DNA from: an uncultured Candidatus Saccharibacteria bacterium | GTDB taxonomy: Bacteria > Patescibacteriota > Minisyncoccia > Phycocordibacterales > JAACPR01 | NCBI GenBank assembly: GCA_964470825.1 | Contig: CAYYEF010000001.1 | Coordinates: 10,302 to 73,128 of the forward strand | Direction: 5' to 3' | Length of the DNA: 62,827 nt | Shown: positions 4,216 through 45,319 of the stretch, piece after piece | Position numbering within the stretch: the first letter of the stretch is position 1 | Layout: the number at the start of each line of letters is the position of its first letter | Translations under genes and position numbers: made by a program | The notes under the pieces: generated by a model | The model's database searches: none | What the model was told of the DNA's origin: nothing | What the model saw: the letters and a program-made list of their open reading frames with translations, nothing else

Positions 4216-4217
4216 TG

Positions 4218-4290
4218 TCCGCCCAGTAGGACTCGAACCTACGACCCTCTCCTTAAAAGGGAGTTGCTCTACCACCTGAGCTATGGGCGG
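4218..4290 (-). tRNA. tRNA-Lys (anticodon UUU)
   Basis: Reverse complement folds as a cloverleaf: acceptor CCGCCCA/TGGGCGG, D arm GCTC/GAGC, anticodon loop CTTTTAA, T arm GTAGG-TTCGAGT-CCTAC, discriminator A. No encoded CCA. Confidence 0.9.
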
Positions 4291-13517: not shown

Positions 13518-15083
13518 ATGATAAACAAAAACAAACAAACAGCCCTAATAATTTTAGATGGTTGGGGACATAGTACCGACTTAGAAAATAATGCTATTGC
13601 AAAAGCTAAAACCCCTTTTTTTGATTATTTAATGCAAAATTACCCACATACTTTTTTACAGGCAAGTGGTGAATGTGTTGGTTTACCAGATGGTCAGGTT
13701 GGTAATAGTGAAATAGGGCATACAACTATTGGAGCAGGAAAAATTATTGATACTGATTTGGTTAGAATTCATAAATCTGTTAAAAGTGATGATTTTATAA
13801 ATAATGAAGCTTTTAAAAAAATTTTTTCTCATATAAAAAATAATAATTCAAAAATTCATATTATTGGGCTACTTAGTTCCGGAGGTGTTCATTCTCACGA
13901 AGAACACCTTTTTGCTTTTCTTGAAATGGCTAAAAATATTTTTGAAAAAGAAATTGGCGATGGATTTTTAAACACTGAAGCTTTTCCCAAAATAATTATT
14001 CACGCTATTACAGACGGAAGAGACACCGATCCTCGCGCTTCTATTGAAAGCTTTAAAAAACTCGAAAGTAAAATTTCTGAAACAAAAATTAACGGGAAAA
14101 ATATTGCTGAAATAGCTACTGTCTCTGGAAGATATTATCCAATGGACCGAGATAATAATTGGGATCGTGTTGAGAAGTTTACTGACATGCTTTTGGGAAA
14201 AGCAGAAAATACTGAAAATACGATCAAGCACTCTACTTTAGAAGAAATTTCTGTTCAACACGAAGGAGGTAAGACGGATGAACACATCACTCCTTTTAAA
14301 GTGAAAAACATTCCTTTGCAAAATAATGATGCTGTTTTTATTTTTAATTTTAGATCAGACAGAGCAAGAATGGTCACCAAAAAAATTTTAGAGAGTAAGG
14401 AAGAGATGAATTTGATGATTGCAACCATGACTGAATATTCAAAAGATTTTTCTGTAGAAGTGGCTTTTCCTGCAATAAAAATTGAAACCACTCTTGCTGC
14501 TGAAATTTCTAAAAATAATTTAAATCAGGCTCACATTGCTGAAACTGAAAAATTTCCTCATGCAACTTATTTCCTAAACGGAGGTCAGGAGAAACCTTAT
14601 GACAAAGAAGAACATGTTTTACTTGAAAGTAGAAAAGATGTGAAAACTCATAACGAGGCTCCAGAAATGCGGGCGGAAGCCATTGCTGATGAAGCGGTAA
14701 AAAGAATTAAAGATGGTGTTAATTTTATTTTTATTAATTTTGCTAATCCTGATATGGTTGGTCACACCGCTGATGTTCCAGCTATTATTACTGCTGTGGA
14801 GACCGTTGATAGAGAATTGAAAAAAGTAGTTGATGCAATGCTTGAACAAGGTGGCTCAGTTCTGATTACAGCAGATCATGGAAATGCTGAGTTAAATATT
14901 GATCCGATTACTGGTTCTATCCATACCGCTCACACCTTAAATGTTGTACCTTGTATTTTAACTGATAAAAATATTAATTTGAAAGAAAGTGGTTCACTTC
15001 AGGATCTTGCTCCAACAGTATTGGATATTTTAAATATTGAAAAACCATATCAAATGACAGGTCAGAGTTTGATAGTGAAATAA
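13518..15083 (+). CDS. gpmI: 2,3-bisphosphoglycerate-independent phosphoglycerate mutase
   Basis: 521 aa with ILDGWG, GNSEIGHTTIGAG, RDTDP, PDMVGHT and TADHGNAE motifs. Confidence 0.95.
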   Translation: MINKNKQTALIILDGWGHSTDLENNAIAKAKTPFFDYLMQNYPHTFLQASGECVGLPDGQVGNSEIGHTTIGAGKIIDTDLVRIHKSVKSDDFINNEAFKKIFSHIKNNNSKIHIIGLLSSGGVHSHEEHLFAFLEMAKNIFEKEIGDGFLNTEAFPKIIIHAITDGRDTDPRASIESFKKLESKISETKINGKNIAEIATVSGRYYPMDRDNNWDRVEKFTDMLLGKAENTENTIKHSTLEEISVQHEGGKTDEHITPFKVKNIPLQNNDAVFIFNFRSDRARMVTKKILESKEEMNLMIATMTEYSKDFSVEVAFPAIKIETTLAAEISKNNLNQAHIAETEKFPHATYFLNGGQEKPYDKEEHVLLESRKDVKTHNEAPEMRAEAIADEAVKRIKDGVNFIFINFANPDMVGHTADVPAIITAVETVDRELKKVVDAMLEQGGSVLITADHGNAELNIDPITGSIHTAHTLNVVPCILTDKNINLKESGSLQDLAPTVLDILNIEKPYQMTGQSLIVK

Positions 15084-21289: not shown

Positions 21290-23968
21290 ATGAAGTATTT
21301 TTATTTAATTACCATCTGTTTTTTTATAAGTTTTAATTTTTGTTTTGCACAAAACACTCAAATAAATATACCAATAAATAATTCCCAAACTATCCCAAGG
21401 GTTGTTATTGAAAACATTTCTTTAGATAAGGAAATTTATAATAGTGGAGAAACTGTCACTGGAAAAATAAAATTTTTAAATATAGGAGATTCCAATCAAT
21501 CAGATATATATTACGCAATCTCTTTAGCAGGTGATTTTTCAACTTCTACTAATGCGTGGAATATACCAAATATTATATATGACACAAAGACTTTTGGGCC
21601 GCTGATTATAAAATCTGGTGAGAGTTCAGAAATAAATTTTTCATATAATCTTCCTGATGGTATATCAGGAGAAGGGTTGGGCCTTAGAGTGCTTACTCAA
21701 CTACAAACAGGTCTACCTATTAGTTGGAATAATGCCTTTTTTAAAAAAATTGAAGGTCAAGATATTCCTCTTGAGGTAAAACAAAACTATATTTCAGTTG
21801 ATGGTCAAGATTTTTCTTCTCAATCTGGTCCAACAATATATCCAAATAATAATGCTGAAATAAAAATAAAGTTATACAATCCAACGGATAAAGAAATTAT
21901 CGTTAGCCCATATATTGAAATATTTGATAGATTTATTTCTGATAATATTCTTAAAACAATTCAAAAAGAATTTTTAAAAATACCAGCTAAATCAGAAAAA
22001 GATCTTATTATCCCTGTTGATAAAAATTTAGAACCAAAAGTTTATTTATCTAGAATTAGTCTTTATGATTTAAATAAAAAATTAAGGGCACCAAAATTAC
22101 AAACAAGATACATTATTGGCGGAAAACCTATTGCAACCATACAAACTGTTTATACAAACGATACAAGTCTAACAAAAAATAAACCTTTAAATTTATCTGT
22201 GTCTTATAGCGGATCTCCCAGAGATTTAAATACAGGACAAGATCTTAAGATTGGTGAAGCTGTTTTGAATGTGAAACTTTTTAATGAAGAAAATAATGAA
22301 TTAATAGGGGAAAATTCAATAACAAAATCTGATTTTGATGTTGATTTTGGAACGGTTGATATCCAAGTTGTTCCTAAGAAATATGCTCAAAAAATCAGAG
22401 TTGAAGCATTTATTATTAAAGATCAAAATATTTTAGGAAAGTACAATACTTCTATTAATTTACCAGAAAAAAAATCTGATTTTCTTTTCTCATATATTGA
22501 TTTTGTAATTATATCAATATTATTGCTTGGTTTTATTAGTCTATTCATTTTCAGAAAAAAAATAAATACAAAGTTATTTTTTTGCATCTCTTTAATATTA
22601 ATTATAGCCACAATTATTTTTGTCCTTATAAAAGACGATCTTGTTTTTGCGCAACCTTATGTACAAATAAATAACCCAATAGGGCAGGATGTATTAAGGG
22701 GAAGTGATATTAATATAACAGGGGTAATTGTTGATTTACGATGTCTTAACGCTATTGGTCAAGTATACGCAACCTCTACAATCATAGGTGTTCCAGGAAC
22801 AACAAACACTGTTAGTTATATACATCAAAATGTAAATCAGCATTTTCAATTTGCTACTGATTATAATTATTTCTCCTTTCTTCAAAACACTCAAAATCTA
22901 GAAGAAAAAAGATATACTGTTCAGGTTGAATTTTCTTCTGTCCAGACTGGGATATTTAATAATTCTGTATCTTGGATAAATAAATGTAATTCAACAGATG
23001 GCCTATGTAGATATACATACTGGACTTCATCCGATCCGGTTCCAGCACCTTACGGATATTTAAGTAAAGCCACTTCTACTTTTAATATTTTATTCCCATC
23101 AGAAGGCTATTTAGATGGTGTTAATGGTAGTTGCGCTGCATGGGGCTGGGTTTGTGATAAAAGTAATTATGCATCATCAACGCAAGTCCATTTTTATGTT
23201 GATAGTGATTCATTCCAAAATTATGCAGGATATACTACAGCTAATATAAACAGACCGGATCTTGTTTCCGCGGGTGTTTGCGGTGGGTATGCTAATCATG
23301 GATATTCTTTTGACATTCCTGCTCAGTATAAAGATGGTCAAACACACAATCTGTATGCATATGGAATAAATATTGGTAAAGATTCTAGTTCCGTTTTTTT
23401 GAATTCTATGCTTATAGGATCTCCTAAACAATTTAATTGTCCTGCTCCACAGTCAGGTGTTTGTGGTTCCGCTGCATCTGTATATGCCTCCTCATCAGTT
23501 TCTTTTAATGGTGCTTATTGTGGTCTTGGTCAAAACCCTGTCGTAACACCTAATTTTCCAGATAAGGGTCAGGCATCACAATGGACTTGTTCCGGTGTTA
23601 ACGGTGGATCTGCAACAACCTGTACAGCTTCTAGGTGTTCTGATTATCAATCGTTGGAAAATGGAGTCTGTATATCTTCTACTCAAGGAGTTTCTCAAAT
23701 AGATGCTAGATTATCACCAAATATTGTTAACTATGGTGAATATTGCACTGTTAATATTAGTACCCCAGGAATAAATATTGCTGATGTTAATGGGGTGTGT
23801 GGTTTATTTAAAAATAATATTAAACAGGTAGATCAAGATTTATTAACCCCAGGTTTTCAAGTTCAAGGGGGATCTGTTTATAGAGTTCTTTGCCAAGATG
23901 GTGGTCAATTATTGGCAACTTCTAAAGATTTGAATTGTTTGATAAACCCTAAAACAAAAGAGTTATAA
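21290..23968 (+). CDS. large exported/membrane protein: N-terminal Ig-like repeats, two central TM helices, Cys-rich C-terminal ectodomain
   Basis: 892 aa. Signal-like N-terminus MKYFYLITICFFISFNFCFA. TM helices FLFSYIDFVIISILLLGFISLFIF and LFFCISLILIIATIIFVLI near residues 400-445. Many cysteines in the C-terminal half. No family recognised. Confidence 0.7.
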   Translation: MKYFYLITICFFISFNFCFAQNTQINIPINNSQTIPRVVIENISLDKEIYNSGETVTGKIKFLNIGDSNQSDIYYAISLAGDFSTSTNAWNIPNIIYDTKTFGPLIIKSGESSEINFSYNLPDGISGEGLGLRVLTQLQTGLPISWNNAFFKKIEGQDIPLEVKQNYISVDGQDFSSQSGPTIYPNNNAEIKIKLYNPTDKEIIVSPYIEIFDRFISDNILKTIQKEFLKIPAKSEKDLIIPVDKNLEPKVYLSRISLYDLNKKLRAPKLQTRYIIGGKPIATIQTVYTNDTSLTKNKPLNLSVSYSGSPRDLNTGQDLKIGEAVLNVKLFNEENNELIGENSITKSDFDVDFGTVDIQVVPKKYAQKIRVEAFIIKDQNILGKYNTSINLPEKKSDFLFSYIDFVIISILLLGFISLFIFRKKINTKLFFCISLILIIATIIFVLIKDDLVFAQPYVQINNPIGQDVLRGSDINITGVIVDLRCLNAIGQVYATSTIIGVPGTTNTVSYIHQNVNQHFQFATDYNYFSFLQNTQNLEEKRYTVQVEFSSVQTGIFNNSVSWINKCNSTDGLCRYTYWTSSDPVPAPYGYLSKATSTFNILFPSEGYLDGVNGSCAAWGWVCDKSNYASSTQVHFYVDSDSFQNYAGYTTANINRPDLVSAGVCGGYANHGYSFDIPAQYKDGQTHNLYAYGINIGKDSSSVFLNSMLIGSPKQFNCPAPQSGVCGSAASVYASSSVSFNGAYCGLGQNPVVTPNFPDKGQASQWTCSGVNGGSATTCTASRCSDYQSLENGVCISSTQGVSQIDARLSPNIVNYGEYCTVNISTPGINIADVNGVCGLFKNNIKQVDQDLLTPGFQVQGGSVYRVLCQDGGQLLATSKDLNCLINPKTKEL

Positions 23969-37235: not shown

Positions 37236-39038
37236 ATGAAACAAATTGTTCGAGAATCTATTAATAAAGTTTTAAGAAGTGCCGGTTTAAACGAGGTTGA
37301 TTTTAATATTGAATACCCAGCTGATTTAAAGTTCGGAGATTATTCCTCAAATGTTGCGATGGTCTTAGCTAAAAAAATTGAGAAAAATCCCAGAGACTTA
37401 GCTCAAGCTATTGTGAACGATTTAAATCGTAATCTTTCTCCTGAAATTGAAAAGGCTGAAATGGCTGGTCCTGGCTTTATTAACTTTTATCTAAAAAAAG
37501 AAATTCTATTTCAAAAAATAGGAGAGATATTTTTAACTGGAAATAATTACGGTCGTTCAAAAAAACTAGCTGGTCAAAAAATTGTTATTGAATACACTGA
37601 TCCAAACGCTTTTAAGCAATTTCATATAGGTCATCTTATGGCCAACGCGATAGGTGAGTCAGTGTCTAGAATTTTAGAATGGAACGGTGCAGACATTACT
37701 CGTATTTGTTATCAGAGTGATGTTGGAATGAATGTGGCGAAAGCTTTATGGGGTATGATTCAAAATAAGGCTGCGTTTCCTCATGATGAAGATTCTTTAG
37801 AAGATAAAATAAAATTTGTTGGAGAGGCCTACACCCTAGGTGCCGCTCGATTCGAAGATGATGAAAATTCCAAACTTGAAATTCAAGAAATTAATAAAAA
37901 AGTTTTTAATTTTTTTAATGGTGACCCAAAGGACGATGATCAAGAATTGAAAATATATTATGAGAAAGGTAAAGCTTGGAGCTTGGCTCATTTTGAAGAG
38001 TTGTATATAAAACTTGGAACAAAATTTGATCGTTATATTCCTGAAAGTAGCACTGCTTCTCTAGGGGAAAAAATTGTTAGGGATAATATAAAAGATCCAG
38101 AAGATGAAAATTCAAAAGGGGTATTTGAGTTGAGTGACGGTGCTGTGGTTTATAAGGGGGAGCAAGACGGTTTGCATACTCGTGTTTTTCTTAATTCTCA
38201 AGGTCTACCTACTTATGAAGCAAAAGATCTAGGACTGGCTTATTTCAAAGATAAAATAGCCGACTTCGATACTTCTATTGTTGTGACGGCTAGCGAACAA
38301 AAAGAATATTTTAAAGTTATGATGGCGGCCCTTGCACGAATAAATTCTGATTTAGCTTCTAAAACAAAACATATTACTCACGGTATGATGCTTCTTGAAA
38401 GTGGAAAAATGTCTTCACGAAAAGGACAGGTTATAACTGGAGAAACCTTAATTAATGAAGCGGAAGAAATGGTGCGACAAATTATTGCTGATAGAGGATT
38501 TGAAAAAGATGTGGCGGAAAAAATAATTGTAGATGTTGCTGTTGCTGCTATTAAATATTCTATTTTAAAACAAGCCTCTGGTAGAGATATTATTTATAAT
38601 GCAAAAACAGCAGTAACTTTTGAAGGAGATTCTGGTCCTTACTTACAATATTCTGTTAATCGTGCTCGATCAGTCATGTCTAAGGCTTTGGAACAAGGAA
38701 TTAAAATTGACAATGATTTAAAGAATCTTATTTTTGATCAAGGTCAAAATTCTTTACCAAATCAAAATTTTTACCACGAATGGCAAACTACAAATCTAGA
38801 GAGAATGATTATTCGTTTCCCAGAAATTGTTTTGGGTGCTGCAGAAAATTTATCACCACATACAATTACCAATTATTTAATTCAGGTAGCAGGTGAATTC
38901 AATAGTTTCTATGCTAATAATCAAATTATTGATAATAAGCCTGATATGGCCTACAAACTAGCTTTAACAAAAGCCACAGAACACGTTTTAGAAAACGGTC
39001 TTCAAATTCTAGGTATTAGAATTCCTTCTAAAATGTAA
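37236..39038 (+). CDS. argS: arginyl-tRNA synthetase
   Basis: 600 aa. FINFYL N-domain, HIGH-type FHIGHLMAN, MSSRKG (KMSK variant), and a C-terminal DALR-type anticodon-binding region. Confidence 0.95.
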   Translation: MKQIVRESINKVLRSAGLNEVDFNIEYPADLKFGDYSSNVAMVLAKKIEKNPRDLAQAIVNDLNRNLSPEIEKAEMAGPGFINFYLKKEILFQKIGEIFLTGNNYGRSKKLAGQKIVIEYTDPNAFKQFHIGHLMANAIGESVSRILEWNGADITRICYQSDVGMNVAKALWGMIQNKAAFPHDEDSLEDKIKFVGEAYTLGAARFEDDENSKLEIQEINKKVFNFFNGDPKDDDQELKIYYEKGKAWSLAHFEELYIKLGTKFDRYIPESSTASLGEKIVRDNIKDPEDENSKGVFELSDGAVVYKGEQDGLHTRVFLNSQGLPTYEAKDLGLAYFKDKIADFDTSIVVTASEQKEYFKVMMAALARINSDLASKTKHITHGMMLLESGKMSSRKGQVITGETLINEAEEMVRQIIADRGFEKDVAEKIIVDVAVAAIKYSILKQASGRDIIYNAKTAVTFEGDSGPYLQYSVNRARSVMSKALEQGIKIDNDLKNLIFDQGQNSLPNQNFYHEWQTTNLERMIIRFPEIVLGAAENLSPHTITNYLIQVAGEFNSFYANNQIIDNKPDMAYKLALTKATEHVLENGLQILGIRIPSKM

Positions 39039-39097: not shown

Positions 39098-42000
39098 ATG
39101 ACAACTAAAAATGAGCAGGCGCCAGAGGCGTCTTTAAACGGTCCTGATATGGCCGGTTCAAATCAAGGGCAAACTGAAAAAAGTCAGGTTGCTTTAACTG
39201 AGGAGGCCGTTCTATCTTTTTGGCAGAAAAATAATATATTTGAAAAAAGTCTGGCTCAAAATATGCCAGAAAATAATTCAAATTCAAAAGGCGAGTTTGT
39301 TTTTTATGATGGACCTCCATTTGCAACTGGAACACCACATTATGGACATTTGCTTGCGGGAACAATGAAAGATTTAATTCCTCGTTATAAAACCATGCAA
39401 GGATATTATGTGCCCAGAAAATGGGGATGGGATTGTCATGGTTTACCAATTGAAAACTTAATCCAAAAAGAAAATAATCTTCATACAAAAAAAGATATTG
39501 AGAATTTTGGAATTAAAAAATTTAGTCAGGCCGCAAAAGCAAGCGTGTTTAGATATGATGCTGAATGGAGAAAAACCGTACCTAGAATCGGTAGATGGGT
39601 AGATATGGATAACCAATACACCACAATGGATTCTGGTTTTATGGAGTCTGTATGGTGGGCTTTTTCTGAATTATATAAAAAAGATTTAATCTATAAAGAT
39701 TTTCGGGTAATGCATATTTCTCCTGCACTCGAAACCCCACTTTCAAATTCTGAGGTCAGTCAAAACTATAAAGATATTACTGATATTACTGCATATGTGA
39801 AATTTGAATTAGTAGATGAACCAGGAACTTTTTTTATTGCTTGGACAACAACCCCTTGGACGTTGCCAGGAAACGTAGCGCTTGCTGTTGGTGAAGATAT
39901 TGATTATGTAAAAGTTGAGATTGAAAATGCTGAAGAAAATCAAAAAGGAAATATTTTTATCGCAAAAAACAGGGTAGAATCTGTTCTAAAAGATAAAACT
40001 TATAAAATTATATCTGAATTAAAAGGTCGTGATTTGGTCGGGAAGAGATATAAGCCTGTTTTCGATTATTACGCAAAAAACGAAAAATTAGAAAATCGTG
40101 AAAATGGATGGAAAATTTATTCAGCTGATTTCGTAACTGATGCTGACGGAACGGGTATAGTTCACATTGCTCCTGCTTTTGGAGAAGATGATTTTAATTT
40201 AAGAAAAGATAAAAATCTTCCTTTTATACAACATGTAAACATGGATGGAACAATTCGTCCCGAAGCAATTGATTTTGCAGGTCTTCAAGCGAAACCAAAG
40301 GCTACAGATGAAAACCCAAATGCTCATCAAAATACGGACATTGAAGTGATTAAATATTTGGCTCATCACGGAAATTTATTTGCTAAAGAAAAAATAATAC
40401 ACTCATACCCTCATTGCTGGAGAACAGATGCGCCACTTTTGAATTATGCTCTTTCTTCTTGGTTTGTAAAAGTTACTAATCTGCGTTCAAAAATGGTTGA
40501 ATTAAATAAAGATATTTATTGGGTTCCAGAGAATATTGGTTCAAAGCGTTTTGCTAATTGGCTTGAGAATGCAAAAGATTGGGGAATTTCCCGCTCTCGT
40601 TTTTGGGGAACAACTATGCCTATTTGGGTTTCTGAAGATGGAGAAATAGATGTTATTGGTTCTGTTGAAGATCTAAGAAATAGAACAAAAGGAACTAATA
40701 AATATTTTCTAGCTCGTCATGGTGAAGCAGAACATAATGTTGCTAAATTTTTATCATCAGATAATTCTGTAAAAAGTGAATTGACCGAAAATGGTTTAAA
40801 ACAAATTGAAGATTTGGCAGAAAATCTTTTGAAAGAACTTGCTAAGAATGGTCAAAAAATAGATTATATTTTTACCTCTCCATTACACCGAACAAAAAGA
40901 ACAGCACAAATTGTGGCTGAAAAAATTAATCTAGATAAAGAATTAATTATTGTAGATGAAAGATTAAAAGAAGTTCAATCTGGAATTCTTAATGGAAAAC
41001 CTACTTCTGAATATTTGAAATTAGTTAATAGTGTTTCAGAACAATTTGAAATTTCTCCAGAAGGAGGTGAAACTATTTCTGATATTAGAAAAAGAGTAGG
41101 GGATTTTATTTATGAAATAGATAAGAAATATTCAAATAAGAATATCCTTATCGTAACCCATGAATATCCAATCTGGATGTTTAATGCTGTGAAGAATGGA
41201 TTAGACAATAAGAAAGCCATTGAAATAAAAACTTTTGGAAAGAGTTTTGTTCCAACAGGTCATTTTGAAGTATATGATTTTGCTCCTTTACCACACGATG
41301 ATGATTATGTTTTGGATCTACATAGACCCTATATTGACGAAATTACATATTTAAAAAATGGTAAAAAATTCACAAGAATTCCAGAGGTTTTTGATACTTG
41401 GTTTGATTCTGGTTCAATGCCATATGCTGTTCCTCATTTTCCATTTAATAATAGACAAAAAAATTCTGGTGGAATTTTGAGTAATTTATTAAAATCTCTT
41501 ACTTCATCAAAAGAACCAAATCATTTTCCTGCAGATTTTATTGCTGAAGGGCTTGATCAAACAAGAGGCTGGTTTTATACCCTAATGGTTTTAAATAGTG
41601 CTTTGTTTGGTAAAAGTCCATTTAAAAATGTCATTGTAAATGGTTTGGTTTTGGCAGAGGACGGAAGAAAGATGTCAAAAAGTCTAAAAAATTATCCAGA
41701 TCCTTCTTATATTTTGGATAAATATGGTGCTGATGCTTTGAGGTATTACATGCTTTCTTCACAAATTGTAAAAGCAGAGCCTTTGAATTTTTCTGAGAAA
41801 GGTGTTGATGAGGTTTTGAAAAAAGTGATCAACAGGTTAATGAATGTTGTTTCATTTTATGAATTGTATGTAAAATCAGAAGAGTCACAAAAAATATTCG
41901 AAGCTTATAAAAATGATAAAAACAAGAAACCACTTTTGAAAAATGAATTAGACACATGGATTGTTTCAAGGTTGGGTGAAGTTTTGAAAAAAACAACAGA

Positions 42001-42784
42001 AGCTCTGGATAAATATGAATTAGATGTTTCAGCTAGACCAATTGCAGAATTTATCGATGATTTGTCTACATGGTATTTGCGTCGATCAAGAGACAGATTT
42101 AAGGGGGAGAATTTCGAAGATTCTGAATCTGCGAAAGAAACTACAAATTATGTATTAATTAATTTGGCAAAAATTATGGCTCCATTTATGCCTTTTACAG
42201 CTGAAGAGATTTACCAAAATATAAGTGGATTCAAAATGAAAAATCCTGATTATAGCGTCCATTTTGAAAAGTGGCCAAACAATATCTATTTTGATCAGAA
42301 AATTATTCAAGAAATGGAGATTGCTAGAAAAATCGTCGCTTTAGGTTTAGAGGCAAGAGACAGAAATAAAATAAAAGTTAGACAACCACTTAAAGAATTA
42401 TTAGTTAAAGATGACTCAATATCTAATCTTAGTGAGGGTATATTAGAAACCATTAAAGATGAGCTGAATGTTAAGGAAATAAAATTTGATTCTCAGATAA
42501 AAGAAGAAGTCTTTCTTAATACAGAGATTACCCCAGAACTTTTAGAAGAAGGAGTAGCACGTGAAATAATTCGAACAATTCAATCTCTTAGAAAAAAATC
42601 AAACTTAAATCCAGAAGATCAAATAGATTTGGTTGTACAAACAGAAGATCAAGGAGAGAAGCTTATCAAAAAATTTGCTGAACAAATTAAAAAACCAACA
42701 AACGTTGTTAATTTTGATTTTGCTGAAAACGACGGAGATAAAATCTCTGTAGAAGGATATAACTTTAATATAGTTATTAAATAG
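39098..42784 (+). CDS. ileS: isoleucyl-tRNA synthetase (type 2, eukaryote-like) carrying an internal histidine-phosphatase domain
   Basis: PPFATGTPHYGHLL (HIGH), WTTTPWTLPGN editing domain, WGISRSRFWG, DQTRGWFY and KMSKSLKNYPDP. 1228 aa, about 200 aa longer than expected because of the insertion annotated separately. Confidence 0.95.
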   Translation: MTTKNEQAPEASLNGPDMAGSNQGQTEKSQVALTEEAVLSFWQKNNIFEKSLAQNMPENNSNSKGEFVFYDGPPFATGTPHYGHLLAGTMKDLIPRYKTMQGYYVPRKWGWDCHGLPIENLIQKENNLHTKKDIENFGIKKFSQAAKASVFRYDAEWRKTVPRIGRWVDMDNQYTTMDSGFMESVWWAFSELYKKDLIYKDFRVMHISPALETPLSNSEVSQNYKDITDITAYVKFELVDEPGTFFIAWTTTPWTLPGNVALAVGEDIDYVKVEIENAEENQKGNIFIAKNRVESVLKDKTYKIISELKGRDLVGKRYKPVFDYYAKNEKLENRENGWKIYSADFVTDADGTGIVHIAPAFGEDDFNLRKDKNLPFIQHVNMDGTIRPEAIDFAGLQAKPKATDENPNAHQNTDIEVIKYLAHHGNLFAKEKIIHSYPHCWRTDAPLLNYALSSWFVKVTNLRSKMVELNKDIYWVPENIGSKRFANWLENAKDWGISRSRFWGTTMPIWVSEDGEIDVIGSVEDLRNRTKGTNKYFLARHGEAEHNVAKFLSSDNSVKSELTENGLKQIEDLAENLLKELAKNGQKIDYIFTSPLHRTKRTAQIVAEKINLDKELIIVDERLKEVQSGILNGKPTSEYLKLVNSVSEQFEISPEGGETISDIRKRVGDFIYEIDKKYSNKNILIVTHEYPIWMFNAVKNGLDNKKAIEIKTFGKSFVPTGHFEVYDFAPLPHDDDYVLDLHRPYIDEITYLKNGKKFTRIPEVFDTWFDSGSMPYAVPHFPFNNRQKNSGGILSNLLKSLTSSKEPNHFPADFIAEGLDQTRGWFYTLMVLNSALFGKSPFKNVIVNGLVLAEDGRKMSKSLKNYPDPSYILDKYGADALRYYMLSSQIVKAEPLNFSEKGVDEVLKKVINRLMNVVSFYELYVKSEESQKIFEAYKNDKNKKPLLKNELDTWIVSRLGEVLKKTTEALDKYELDVSARPIAEFIDDLSTWYLRRSRDRFKGENFEDSESAKETTNYVLINLAKIMAPFMPFTAEEIYQNISGFKMKNPDYSVHFEKWPNNIYFDQKIIQEMEIARKIVALGLEARDRNKIKVRQPLKELLVKDDSISNLSEGILETIKDELNVKEIKFDSQIKEEVFLNTEITPELLEEGVAREIIRTIQSLRKKSNLNPEDQIDLVVQTEDQGEKLIKKFAEQIKKPTNVVNFDFAENDGDKISVEGYNFNIVIK
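40688..41305 (+). other. histidine phosphatase (PGAM-like, branch 1) domain inserted in frame within ileS
   Basis: Residues about 531-736: YFLARHGEAEHN (RHG motif), LTENGLKQ, TSPLHRTKRTA, EVQSGILNG, PEGGETISD and LIVTHEYPI (second His). Flanked by the IleRS segments IDVIGSVEDL and LDLHRPYIDE. Confidence 0.8.
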
Positions 42785-42786
42785 TA

Positions 42787-43386
42787 ATGCATCATATTTA
42801 TAGAACAGAAGCTATTATTTTATCTAGTCGTCCAAGCGGGGAGTCTGGTAAATATTTAACTGTTTTGTCCAAAGAATATGGGGTTTTAAAAATTGAAGCC
42901 CAAGCAGTTAGGAAAAATGATTCAAAGCTTCGTCAATCAATTCAAGATTTTTCAGTTGTGGATATTTCTTTCGTAAGAGGAAAGACAGGAAATAAATTAG
43001 TAAACGCATCTTTTATTTCTAATTTTTATTATGAAATATCAAATCAGAAAATTTTGAAAAGCATCTCTAATATTTTTCGCCTGGTTGAAAAAATGATTGT
43101 CGACGAAGAAAAAGATGATTCTATTTTTGATTTATTCATCAAAATAAACCTTATTTTAAAAGATAATTTAGACTGTACCGATGATTTTCTCAAGGCCTTG
43201 GAAATTATTTCTGTATATAGACTTCTTTCAAGTCTTGGATATTTAAGCCGAGATGGAGAGTATAATTTTATTTTAAGTGAAGAACTTGATGAAGGTTTGG
43301 TTTTGAGAATGGAAAAAAAATTAATTACCGATAAAGAAAAAATAATTAGATTAATTAATAATGCTATTAATGAAAGTCATTTATAA
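42787..43386 (+). CDS. recO: DNA repair protein RecO (short form)
   Basis: 199 aa. The N-terminal OB pattern TEAIILSSRPSGESGKYLTVLSKEYGVLKIEAQAVRK resembles RecO. No zinc motif seen. Confidence 0.7.
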   Translation: MHHIYRTEAIILSSRPSGESGKYLTVLSKEYGVLKIEAQAVRKNDSKLRQSIQDFSVVDISFVRGKTGNKLVNASFISNFYYEISNQKILKSISNIFRLVEKMIVDEEKDDSIFDLFIKINLILKDNLDCTDDFLKALEIISVYRLLSSLGYLSRDGEYNFILSEELDEGLVLRMEKKLITDKEKIIRLINNAINESHL

Positions 43387-43405
43387 TTTGGTATAATAAT
43401 TGCAC

Positions 43406-45319
43406 ATGCAATTACCTAATGGTCAAAAATCTAGATTAGAAAAATTAGAGCAAAAACTTTATTCTGTTGACGGTATTTCTTCCAAAGAAAGGGCTTCCTT
43501 AAAAGCAAAAAATTACACGGTAAATAATGATTGGGGAGAGCCTGAAATGAAAAATGATTTTTCTTTTCCTAAAAAGAAATTTGGTTTTTTTAGCTTGGTG
43601 TTAATTTTAGCTGCAATATTTTTTGTTGGCTCTTTGTCTTATGCCGGATTTATTTTTCTAAATGGCAATAAGGCAATTTCCGGAAATAATGTTGACATAA
43701 AAGTCGTCGGACCTGTTTCTGTTGGAGGAGGAGAGTCTCTGTCTGTAGATGTTGTTGTTGCTAATAATAATCAAATTCCACTTGAACTTGTAGATCTTTT
43801 TGCTGAATATCCGGAGGGATCTAAAAATCCTGAAAATATTTCTGAAGATTTGAGAAGAGTTAATTTAGATTTGGGAACAATTCCACCCGGATCAGTAATA
43901 AGAAAGACCGTAAAAGTGGCTTTGTTTGGAGAAGAAGGTTCAAATAAAAAAATCGACTTTATTTTGCAATATAGAATTTCTGGATCAAATGCAATTTTTG
44001 AAAAAAAGAAAGAATTTGAAGTTGCTTTAAGTGCAACACCTATTCGTCTGTCTGTTTCTGGTTTAGAAGAGATCTCTTCATCTCAAACTGTTGATTTAAC
44101 TGTTAAATTTAATTCTAATTCTGTTCAACCTCTTAAAAATGTCATGATAGTGGCTGAGTATCCTTTTGGTTTTAAGTATGAAAAATCAGATTTAAAGCCA
44201 AAATACAATAATAATATTTGGTTTTTTGAAGAACTAAAGCCTAATGAGGAAATAGAATTCAAGGTATCAGGTGTAATAGAGGGACAAAATCAAGAAGATA
44301 GAATATTTAGATTTAATACTGGTTTAGCGAAAGAAAATTCTCCTGAAGAGATTGGTGTGTTGTTTGCCACTACCATGCACGAAGTAAAGGTTACAAAATC
44401 TTTTGTCGGTCTTGTCCTAAATATTAACAAAGATCCTGCTACTGTTGTCTCTGTACAGAGCGGTGAATATAACGAAGGAGAAGTTATTTTTACAAATAAT
44501 ACCAACGACTCAATTAAAAACTTAGAAATTAAATTACAACTAAATGGTGCAGTACTTAATGAAGACTCAGTTACCGTAACAAGTGGATTTTATAGCTCTA
44601 TTGATAATACAATAACTTGGAATAAAAATACTGATGATTTGTTTTTAAATATTGCCCCTAGGAAAACCGGAAGAATATCATTTAGATTTAAGACTCTGGA
44701 ATTAGTTAGTGGAAAAACTAGTATTAAAAATCCACAAATAGATATAACAGCAAAAGTATCTGGTACAAGGATTTCAACTTCAAATACTGAAGAAAAAATA
44801 TCATCCGATACATTTAAAAATATAAAAGTTATATCAGACACATCTGTATATGCCTACACTCATTACAATGAAGGACCTTTTATTAATTCTGGCCCGATTC
44901 CTCCCAAGGTAGATACTCCAACTAGTTATACAATTGAATTTGCAGCCTCAAATAATTCTAATGATTTAGATAACGCTCAGATAACAGCCATATTGCCACC
45001 CTATGTTTCTTGGAAAGGGGCATTTAGTCCAAGTGGAGAAAATGTATCTTTCGATTCAATTAATAGAAAAATGGTTTGGAATATTGGACCTATTCCTGCA
45101 GGAACAGGTTATACAAAAAATATTAAACAACTGTATTTTAAAGTAGAGCTTTTGCCAAGTATTTCTCAAACTGGAAACAAGTTAGATTTATTAAATGATA
45201 TTATGTTTAATGCAAATGATACTTTTACAAGGAAAAGTATCTCTACAAAAGTTAATTCACCAAATACTATTATAAAAGGGTATCCTATTGCAGATAACCA
45301 CGGAAATGTGGTTCAATAG
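43406..45319 (+). CDS. membrane-anchored surface protein with repeated Ig-like (CARDB-like) domains
   Basis: 637 aa. Cytoplasmic N-terminus, one TM (FGFFSLVLILAAIFFVGSLSYAGFIFL), then beta-rich repeats. TGGTATAAT (43389-43397) lies 8 nt before ATG 43406. No family recognised. Confidence 0.65.
   Translation: MQLPNGQKSRLEKLEQKLYSVDGISSKERASLKAKNYTVNNDWGEPEMKNDFSFPKKKFGFFSLVLILAAIFFVGSLSYAGFIFLNGNKAISGNNVDIKVVGPVSVGGGESLSVDVVVANNNQIPLELVDLFAEYPEGSKNPENISEDLRRVNLDLGTIPPGSVIRKTVKVALFGEEGSNKKIDFILQYRISGSNAIFEKKKEFEVALSATPIRLSVSGLEEISSSQTVDLTVKFNSNSVQPLKNVMIVAEYPFGFKYEKSDLKPKYNNNIWFFEELKPNEEIEFKVSGVIEGQNQEDRIFRFNTGLAKENSPEEIGVLFATTMHEVKVTKSFVGLVLNINKDPATVVSVQSGEYNEGEVIFTNNTNDSIKNLEIKLQLNGAVLNEDSVTVTSGFYSSIDNTITWNKNTDDLFLNIAPRKTGRISFRFKTLELVSGKTSIKNPQIDITAKVSGTRISTSNTEEKISSDTFKNIKVISDTSVYAYTHYNEGPFINSGPIPPKVDTPTSYTIEFAASNNSNDLDNAQITAILPPYVSWKGAFSPSGENVSFDSINRKMVWNIGPIPAGTGYTKNIKQLYFKVELLPSISQTGNKLDLLNDIMFNANDTFTRKSISTKVNSPNTIIKGYPIADNHGNVVQ

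Follow-up and report, generated by a model that had tools for sequence, protein, structure and literature searches.

A 62,827-nucleotide stretch from an uncultured Candidatus Saccharibacteria bacterium, one of the ultra-small Patescibacteria (GenBank assembly GCA_964470825.1, contig CAYYEF010000001.1, positions 10,302 to 73,128; hereafter the window, meaning this stretch at its full length) contains an ileS gene for an isoleucyl-tRNA synthetase (IleRS) inside which, on sequence grounds, sits a complete branch-1 histidine phosphatase with its catalytic set intact. The insertion point is the middle of connective peptide 3 (CP3), in a loop next to the active site and past the linker that lines the pocket for the CCA end of the tRNA, and the insert itself is a fused version of what relatives encode between argS and ileS as a dedicated partner gene. 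We are highly confident of this architecture and of the evolutionary statement that goes with it, namely that the insert is a fused partner gene that also occurs as a free protein, in CP3 of other IleRS, in other loops of that enzyme and in CP3 of valyl-tRNA synthetase (ValRS). A synthetase with an accessory domain is a known kind of thing, of which an IleRS with an internal phosphatase is a new variety, both real and widespread.

What is embedded in the synthetase?

The insert comprises residues 531-736 of the protein, which correspond exactly to nucleotides 40688-41305. The Pfam family His_Phos_1 (PF00300) matches residues 537-706 of the full protein at E 9e-29, and the insert, excised and scanned alone, gives E 2.6e-30 and 106 bits; the scores, 101-106 bits in all, stand against a cutoff of 21.7. 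An initial annotation of the window, made from its letters, had claimed a complete histidine phosphatase in an in-frame insertion of about 205 residues, and this is what we find, down to the boundaries. Across 121 aligned sequences (the window protein and its 120 best homologs) the residues R540, H541, G542, N547, R598 and H688 are invariant, and E625 is found in 120, with D in the remaining one; the claim that the insert is unlikely to be a decayed relic is therefore borne out by catalytic residues that are kept across the clade.

The domain is predicted to fold normally and is apparently active. AlphaFold2 (AF2), run on residues 30-1228 with 76 homologs, gave a mean predicted local distance difference test score (pLDDT) of 90.9 and a predicted template modelling score (pTM) of 0.83, with 91-97 in the insert, and the phosphatase domain modelled by itself reached a pLDDT of 96.4. 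In Foldseek searches the domain model matched the phosphoserine phosphatase PspA (4IJ5/4IJ6), a mycobacterial hydrolase (6S2Q), the riboflavin-pathway phosphatase HFP (9MMH), CobC (6NRU) and PhoE (1H2E), with template modelling (TM) scores of about 0.7-0.77 and 20-27% identity; cofactor-dependent phosphoglycerate mutases (dPGMs) score similarly, and E is 1e-14 to 1e-11 for PspA, PhoE, CobC and dPGM. GC content is 0.27-0.30 in the insert as against 0.33-0.35 in its flanks, which is a slight dip only. Nor are we dealing with an intein, which agrees with the absence of intein-like junction residues noted in the initial annotation: the Pfam scan of the window IleRS matched no Hint or intein family, and residues of the intein type were not found at the junctions, which read ...EDLRNRTKGTNKYF... 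and ...PLPHDDDYVLDLHRP... The same protein has no Pfam match to an acetyltransferase domain.

The position of the insert can be read from a phmmer alignment to the Saccharomyces cerevisiae enzyme (ScIleRS; 8wnd_A), in which query residue 530 pairs with Sc 492 and query residue 738 with Sc 497, so that about 207 residues stand in for a loop of four. In ScIleRS the catalytic domain occupies residues 8-169 and 527-643, the connective-peptide (CP) core 170-196 and 400-419, CP1 197-399, CP2 420-458 and CP3 459-526, and the CP2-3 linker, 453-ARDWNVSRNRYWG-465, lines the pocket that binds both the CCA end (A76) of the tRNA and reveromycin (PMC7955072). The insert starts 27 residues past the window equivalent of this linker (KDWGISRSRFWG, residues 493-504), and the connective-peptide location that had been proposed for it can be refined, by this alignment, to mid-CP3.

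What kind of enzyme is the host?

The host gene is a single uninterrupted reading frame for 1228 amino acids, and its product looks like a functional IleRS of type 2, the eukaryote-like type. The NCBIfam model TIGR00392 (ileS) matches at 867.7 bits (cutoff 621.4) and Pfam tRNA-synt_1 (PF00133) at E 1.5e-130, each in two stretches that the phosphatase domain separates. The HIGH motif takes the form PHYGH (residues 80-84, 39335-39349), the CP1 editing domain is covered by the alignment to ScIleRS 13-492, LDLHRPYIDE (residues 739-748, 41312-41341) lies in the second half of CP3 and DTWFDSG (41393-41428) in the second Rossmann half, KMSKS follows at residues 858-862 (41669-41683), and Pfam places Anticodon_1 (PF08264) at residues 952-1100 with E 4.9e-34 and DUF5915, the type-2 C-terminal domain, at 1138-1227. 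The best matches in the PDB are the cytoplasmic IleRS of yeast and human and the IleRS2 of Priestia megaterium (E 1e-204 to 3e-220), with type-1 IleRS structures weaker at E 1e-60 to 1e-82; similarity to MupA/MupB is seen in the NCBIfam profile comparison, and the AF2 model matches 8c8v, 8wnd and 1ile in Foldseek with a TM of 0.8-0.9 on the target. Both the class Ia landmarks and the type-2 affiliation had been read correctly in the initial annotation, and every motif quoted there is found in its place, KDWGISRSRFWG, IDVIGSVEDL (517-526) and PEGGET (654-659) among them. There is one ileS only within the window. The window IleRS and its closest relative (L001) also have in common a low-complexity N-terminal extension of about 30 residues (MTTKNEQAPEASLNGPDMAGSNQGQTEKSQ…, 39098-39184), which precedes the region that can be aligned to solved IleRS.

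How widespread is the architecture?

A homolog search with the full window protein returned 8000 candidates, and in the best 120 of these, which are 52-76% identical to it and 1130-1268 amino acids long, PF00133 and PF00300 occur together in 120 of 120. All of these carry the insert, so the boundary of the insert-bearing clade is not visible among them, and it was exposed instead through the loci with a free phosphatase that are described below. Among the 121 aligned sequences the insert is 36-73% identical to that of the window (median 49%), and its length is 204-213 amino acids in all but one; it is also present in six species representatives of GTDB. When 1.84 billion cluster representatives were searched with the insert alone, most of the best 150 matches were IleRS, or fragments of IleRS, with the domain at the CP3 site. 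A second and distant type of IleRS, which is Thermus-like (it has YEGPPTANG and, in CP3, a zinc knuckle CxxC...CxxC), is interrupted by the phosphatase in the same place, with one half of the knuckle on either side; the knuckle itself has been lost in the clade of the window's enzyme.

Taken as a whole, the sequences indicate that the phosphatase in IleRS is a trait of many Patescibacteria lineages and not a singular oddity. Metagenomic orthologs with the same insertion, for which the initial annotation had suggested a search, proved plentiful, with 32 loci in addition to the 120 best homologs. Its further suggestion that the module is undescribed holds in one respect and needs qualification in the other: we found no description in the literature, and the module is common across Patescibacteria, where the source labels are only generic ('class I tRNA ligase family protein', in metagenome-assembled genomes of Candidatus Paceibacterota or Patescibacteria, or 'isoleucyl-tRNA synthetase').

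Where else does this phosphatase occur?

The nearest free-standing homologs of the insert (P0007, P0008 and P0009) are proteins of 185-192 amino acids, 39-42% identical to it, and each is encoded between argS, for arginyl-tRNA synthetase (ArgRS), and an ileS without any insert, in open reading frames (ORFs) that abut or overlap. In the window, argS (37236-39038) is followed directly by the ileS that contains the insert. The free protein and the insert align end to end, from NKY[FY]xxRHGE to TGE[LF]R, and it is therefore a whole gene that has been embedded.

We then have the evidence of a metagenome scan seeded with the free forms, in which the best 80 loci were classified with purpose-built hidden Markov models (HMMs) for the N part of IleRS, its C part, the phosphatase and ArgRS; the resulting counts are biased by the search pattern and by the restriction to the best 80, and are not population frequencies. 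The phosphatase is free in 47 of the 80 loci, of which 41 have ileS immediately downstream and 38 have argS upstream, and it lies within CP3 of ileS in 32, of which 21 have argS upstream, the rest having a contig edge or some other neighbour there. In one locus (L086) it forms an in-frame extension of the ArgRS C-terminus, and the N-terminal read-through fusion of phosphatase to IleRS, mutationally the easiest type, occurs in none of the 80. The fusion in L086 (4375-6561) puts ArgRS and phosphatase in one open frame (…VMGISSPQQM followed by KRIELNNKYYIMRHGQ…), with ileS after it, and this single locus could represent either a C-terminal fusion or a lost stop codon.

Further downstream, a recO-like gene, which belongs to the syntenic block and not to the fusion, follows ileS in 44 of 46 loci, and 33 of 46 related loci keep an ORF of 639 amino acids (hyp639) downstream of recO, so that the conserved block reads argS-(phosphatase)-ileS-recO-hyp639-(class II synthetase-like gene). 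The genes glyA, tmk and dut upstream were considered as a functional clue and dropped, being conserved upstream of argS in none of 37 loci. A more distant free homolog (P0014, 35% identical) is found at L008:6001-8356 and L009:3004-5359, together with Maf, an HD/YfbR-like 5'-nucleotidase and a nucleoside 2-deoxyribosyltransferase, which is a nucleotide-salvage context.

On neighbour-joining trees of both the phosphatase and IleRS (BLOSUM62 distances, no support values, hence rough and used only for interleaving) the free and embedded states interleave: the IleRS clade of the window (FYDGPPFATGTPHYGH) falls within a set of IleRS whose genes adjoin one for a free phosphatase (55-57% identity), and the large embedded clade is that of the Thermus-like type. 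Identities of 72-79% link the embedded phosphatases of L029 and L049 with the free ones of L016, L028, L030 and L032 (76-79% for L049 and free phosphatases), and the value for embedded L091 and free L092 is 66%; these nearest-neighbour identities support at least three transitions or exchanges between the two states. Rare IleRS variants carry extra copies in two other surface loops, after DxWFDSG (window residues ~787-812) or early in the anticodon-binding domain (~929-941), and the second copy of the two-phosphatase variants P0282, P0206 and P0247 lies at one or other of these places; the catalytic residues are kept in all extra IleRS copies. One IleRS fragment (P0233, 1066 amino acids) has a domain resembling the IS200/REP-associated tyrosine transposases (~326-472) inside the editing domain, a phosphatase in CP3 and, in the loop that follows DxWFDSG, a GNAT domain as well.

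The paralogous ValRS tells a related story. In Gracilibacteria, Peregrinibacteria and their relatives (P0291-P0408), 70 of the 119 nearest ValRS carry between one and three tandem copies of the phosphatase; among the ones inspected, the majority have them at the CP3 position homologous to that in IleRS, flanked by WCISRQIWWGHRIPVWYD and QDEDTLDTWFSS. A few carry an additional copy ahead of the WxISRQ motif. Of 81 ValRS copies, 80 keep the R, H and R of the catalytic set, 72 the second His and 56 the Glu.

What might the phosphatase be doing?

Selection has repeatedly placed the phosphatase in CP3, next to the acceptor-end/nucleotide pocket, and the recurrence of this same site, together with the tandem copies and the free operon form, argues for a selected coupling of a phosphomonoesterase with class Ia aminoacylation, of which none has been described. 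The reading that we favour, and to which we would give a probability of only about 40%, is that the domain works as an active phosphomonoesterase and, to do its job, has to be stationed next to the pocket for aminoacylation and the acceptor end in a class Ia editing synthetase. Its target would then be some phosphorylated ligand that this pocket presents, and the substrate we have in mind is a phosphorylated ribose end, which might be a 2'/3'-phosphate or pyrophosphate on A76 of the tRNA, a modification that blocks charging, or else an adenine-nucleotide product or analogue; removal of the phosphorylated end would keep the synthetase or the tRNA competent. The functions guessed at in the initial annotation, which might involve a nucleotide by-product or the tRNA 3' end, would also fit what is observed. 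There are toxins, the toxSAS family, which add pyrophosphate to tRNA at its 3'-CCA end and so block aminoacylation (bioRxiv 10.1101/2021.04.30.441581; PMC11559606). The narrower proposal, that we are looking at an unrecognised class Ia repair or proofreading activity in which the phosphatase strips a 2'/3'-phosphate or pyrophosphate, whether added by toxSAS or left by a nuclease, from A76 at the charging enzyme itself, strikes us as distinctly unlikely; if it were true, Patescibacteria would have the repair of tRNA ends attached to IleRS and ValRS as a module, either built in or encoded in the operon.

Several observations weigh against the reading that we favour. The sequence discloses no substrate, and every specific equivalog model falls far below its cutoff. 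An IleRS-tethered phosphatase would serve only tRNA-Ile, which is odd for general repair of tRNA ends, and we know of no branch-1 histidine phosphatase that acts on RNA 3' ends. With 25 of 81 ValRS copies lacking the Glu and nine the second His, catalysis is not universally retained in ValRS, and because the order argS-(phosphatase)-ileS-recO-hyp639 is generally conserved, adjacency alone is weak evidence of functional coupling. Charge, finally, speaks with two voices: the medians per 100 amino acids are +9.9 for free phosphatases, +6.4 for embedded ones and +2.3 for neighbouring ORFs (+8 is reached by 2.3% of those ORFs), whereas the window's own domain is slightly acidic, at -1.7 per 100 amino acids and an isoelectric point of 5.9, and the ValRS inserts are acidic too. 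The basic charge thus fits the free and most embedded forms and not the window domain or the ValRS inserts, and we keep it only as a hint of nucleic-acid binding.

Among the rival explanations, the likeliest is that this is a housekeeping small-molecule phosphatase, for nucleotide salvage or some other metabolite, which has been fused or co-transcribed with ileS merely to secure joint expression and a more compact genome. Streamlining is pronounced in Patescibacteria genomes, small phosphatases of broad specificity (PspA, PhoE, CobC and the riboflavin HFP) are what the domain most resembles in fold and sequence, the distant homolog P0014 keeps company with Maf, an HD 5'-nucleotidase and a nucleoside deoxyribosyltransferase, and argS-ileS-recO-hyp639 is conserved as a syntenic block. 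However, a read-through fusion of abutting ORFs would suffice for co-expression, and this was found in 0 of 80 loci as against 32 insertions in mid-protein at CP3; moreover, the paralogous ValRS uses the same site, further copies are placed in other loops of the same enzyme, and the basic charge of the free proteins goes well beyond what a metabolite phosphatase requires, all of which makes us doubt the idea without dismissing it. We find it improbable that the domain is instead a protein phosphatase that lifts an inhibitory phosphorylation off the synthetase, for example from a serine in the KMSKS loop, by analogy with what is seen for HipA on GltX and HipT on TrpS. It is true that the histidine phosphatase superfamily includes the protein phosphatases SixA, PGAM5 and Sts-1, that the model for the SixA phosphohistidine phosphatase (TIGR00249) gives a weak match of 39.7 bits, that the serine of the KMSKS motif in class I synthetases is a target of kinase toxins, and that all three insertion sites (CP3, 787-812 and 929-941) flank the KMSKS-bearing half; but an intramolecular role needs one copy, yet arrays of two to four occur, there is a free and very basic form, no kinase was seen in the loci examined, and the SixA score stays under its cutoff of 74.5. 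Similarly long odds attach, in our opinion, to a non-catalytic module, be it a dimerisation or scaffolding domain or a sensor of a phospho-ligand that would regulate IleRS allosterically. His_Phos proteins commonly dimerise, some ValRS copies have no Glu or second His, and the CP3 zinc knuckle CxxC...CxxC has gone in the window's clade; against this, 121 IleRS sequences preserve the catalytic set even though identity in the rest of the domain falls as low as 36%, and extra IleRS copies keep that set as well.

Two further possibilities can be put much lower. The first reading that the label 'PGAM-like' in the initial annotation brings to mind, that the insert is the organism's glycolytic dPGM fused to IleRS, draws on the signature LxRHGExxxN and on NF038349 (dPGM_arch), which is the best NCBIfam match by name; the latter gives 85-90 bits against a cutoff of 225, however, TIGR01258 (pgm_1) gives 27.6 against 81.7, and the PRK models for dPGM are also far below cutoff. 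The structurally nearest proteins are short phosphatases and not mutases, and a complete cofactor-independent phosphoglycerate mutase (iPGM) is encoded in the window, so that a glycolytic mutase role for the insert is unnecessary. The label is thus sound at the level of the superfamily and fails as dPGM, an identity that we hold to be very improbable. Other specific assignments go the same way, with TIGR03162 (CobC alpha-ribazole phosphatase) at 68-73 bits against 162.9, NF045917 (PspA phosphoserine phosphatase) at 66-71 against 350, and GpmB and the remaining phosphatase equivalogs of NCBIfam far from their cutoffs. As for an artefact, whether a chimeric assembly, a mis-called ORF, an intein or a mobile insertion, the chance is practically negligible: the same in-frame architecture recurs in more than 100 independent assemblies, and on these grounds the chimera and the mis-called ORF are rejected; it is seen in 120 of 120 best homologs, six GTDB species representatives and 32 metagenome loci from many independent samples, and there is no Hint or intein match and no break in composition. 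A component of anti-phage defence was also considered and discarded, PADLOC having returned no matches for the insert, the free phosphatase or the conserved 639-residue neighbour.

What else lies in the window?

The coordinates of the gene, its parts and its neighbours are collected in the table. Elsewhere in the window, ARAGORN reports a 'tRNA-Stop' at 4217-4290 on the minus strand, with the anticodon TTA at position 35; put in the canonical register, with a seven-nucleotide loop CUUUUAA and a five-nucleotide variable loop, the anticodon is UUU, so that instead of a suppressor we most likely have an ordinary tRNA-Lys that contains a mismatch, A27·A43. An ORF of 892 amino acids at 21290-23968 on the plus strand matches no Pfam family at E <= 1e-5.

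Table. Features of the window that bear on the ileS gene, with positions counted from the first letter of the window
Feature	Position	Strand	Evidence
ileS, type-2 IleRS with inserted phosphatase domain, 1228 amino acids	39098..42784	+	ORF, TIGR00392, Pfam, Foldseek
IleRS N-terminal part: first Rossmann half, CP core, CP1 editing, CP2, CP2-3 linker KDWGISRSRFWG (40574-40609), first CP3 half	39098..40687	+	alignment to ScIleRS 13-492
His_Phos_1 branch-1 domain, residues 531-736 (206 residues), equal to a whole free-standing protein of ~190 amino acids	40688..41305	+	PF00300, AF2, Foldseek, free homologs
RHGEAEHN, residues 540-547: predicted catalytic Arg540, nucleophile His541, Gly542, Asn547	40715..40738	+	invariant in 121/121 homologs
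SPLHRTKRTA, residues 594-603: predicted phosphate-binding Arg598	40877..40906	+	invariant in 121/121
LKEVQSG, residues 623-629: predicted acid/base Glu625	40964..40984	+	E in 120/121, D in 1/121
VTHEYP, residues 686-691: predicted second catalytic His688	41153..41170	+	invariant in 121/121
IleRS C-terminal part: second CP3 half, second Rossmann half, anticodon-binding domain, type-2 C-terminal domain	41306..42784	+	alignment to ScIleRS 497-885, Pfam
argS (arginyl-tRNA synthetase), upstream neighbour	37236..39038	+	Pfam Arg_tRNA_synt_N, tRNA-synt_1d, DALR_1
recO-like gene, downstream neighbour, in the syntenic block and not in the fusion	42787..43386	+	RecO_N E 2e-13
639-residue ORF (hyp639)	43400-45319	+	no Pfam or PADLOC match
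iPGM, complete	13518..15083	+	Pfam Metalloenzyme E 4.6e-65, iPGM_N E 6.5e-57

How does it compare with what is known?

The window enzyme shares its domain order, HIGH and KMSKS with the mupirocin-resistant type-2 IleRS (S. cerevisiae 7D5C and 8WND; P. megaterium IleRS2 8C8V; phmmer E 3e-220), but the solved IleRS carry nothing at the CP3 loop (Sc 492-497), where the window IleRS has 206 phosphatase residues. With the small branch-1 phosphatases (PspA 4IJ5, PhoE/YhfR 1H2E/1EBB, CobC 6NRU and HFP 9MMH) the insert shares the fold, the size of about 200 amino acids and the RHG...R...E...H set, and it differs from PspA, PhoE, CobC and HFP, apart from the identity of just 20-27%, in being embedded in or encoded beside a synthetase and in having free forms that are strongly basic. 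There is a curated precedent for a bacterial IleRS with an extra catalytic domain, NCBIfam NF040702 (ileS_w_GNAT), and the relative P0233 has both phosphatase and GNAT; in NF040702, however, the added domain is a GNAT, and the window protein is no member, scoring 282 bits against a cutoff of 1999. The Rv2228c-type RNase H/acid phosphatase (NF005567), the second-best NCBIfam match of the insert at 79-82 bits, likewise joins a CobC/PhoE-like phosphatase to a nucleic-acid enzyme, but as an end-to-end fusion with RNase H as the partner, and the insert stays below the cutoff of 326.

The same principle of design is seen in the CP1 editing domain of IleRS, ValRS and leucyl-tRNA synthetase (LeuRS), which is also a hydrolytic domain inserted in the Rossmann fold via a connective peptide and works on ligands of the synthetic site; CP1, though, hydrolyses aminoacyl esters and is universal, whereas the insert is a predicted phosphomonoesterase, is restricted to certain lineages, lies in CP3 and can be a separate protein. 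A further comparison is with the ValRS of Gracilibacteria and Peregrinibacteria with His_Phos_1 in CP3, where a homologous phosphatase occupies the homologous site, the differences being the host, the frequent presence of two or three tandem copies and the absence of the Glu or second His from some of them. A full-text literature search found no description of a synthetase with a histidine phosphatase domain; such a search misses many subscription papers, and the absence is not proof.

Why does it matter?

Aminoacyl-tRNA synthetases are among the best-studied of all enzymes. Extra catalytic domains in the bacterial ones are rare and usually terminal, and here we have an apparently active enzyme inside the catalytic domain of IleRS, and elsewhere of ValRS, throughout much of the Candidate Phyla Radiation. 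The insert accounts for the merely generic name, 'class I tRNA ligase family protein', under which these essential enzymes stand in NCBI, and some caution is called for in metabolic reconstructions of Patescibacteria, where the domain should not be counted as a phosphoglycerate mutase. The identity of the substrate could reveal a new step in the quality control of tRNA or nucleotides, or perhaps a countermeasure to translation-targeting toxins in episymbiotic bacteria.

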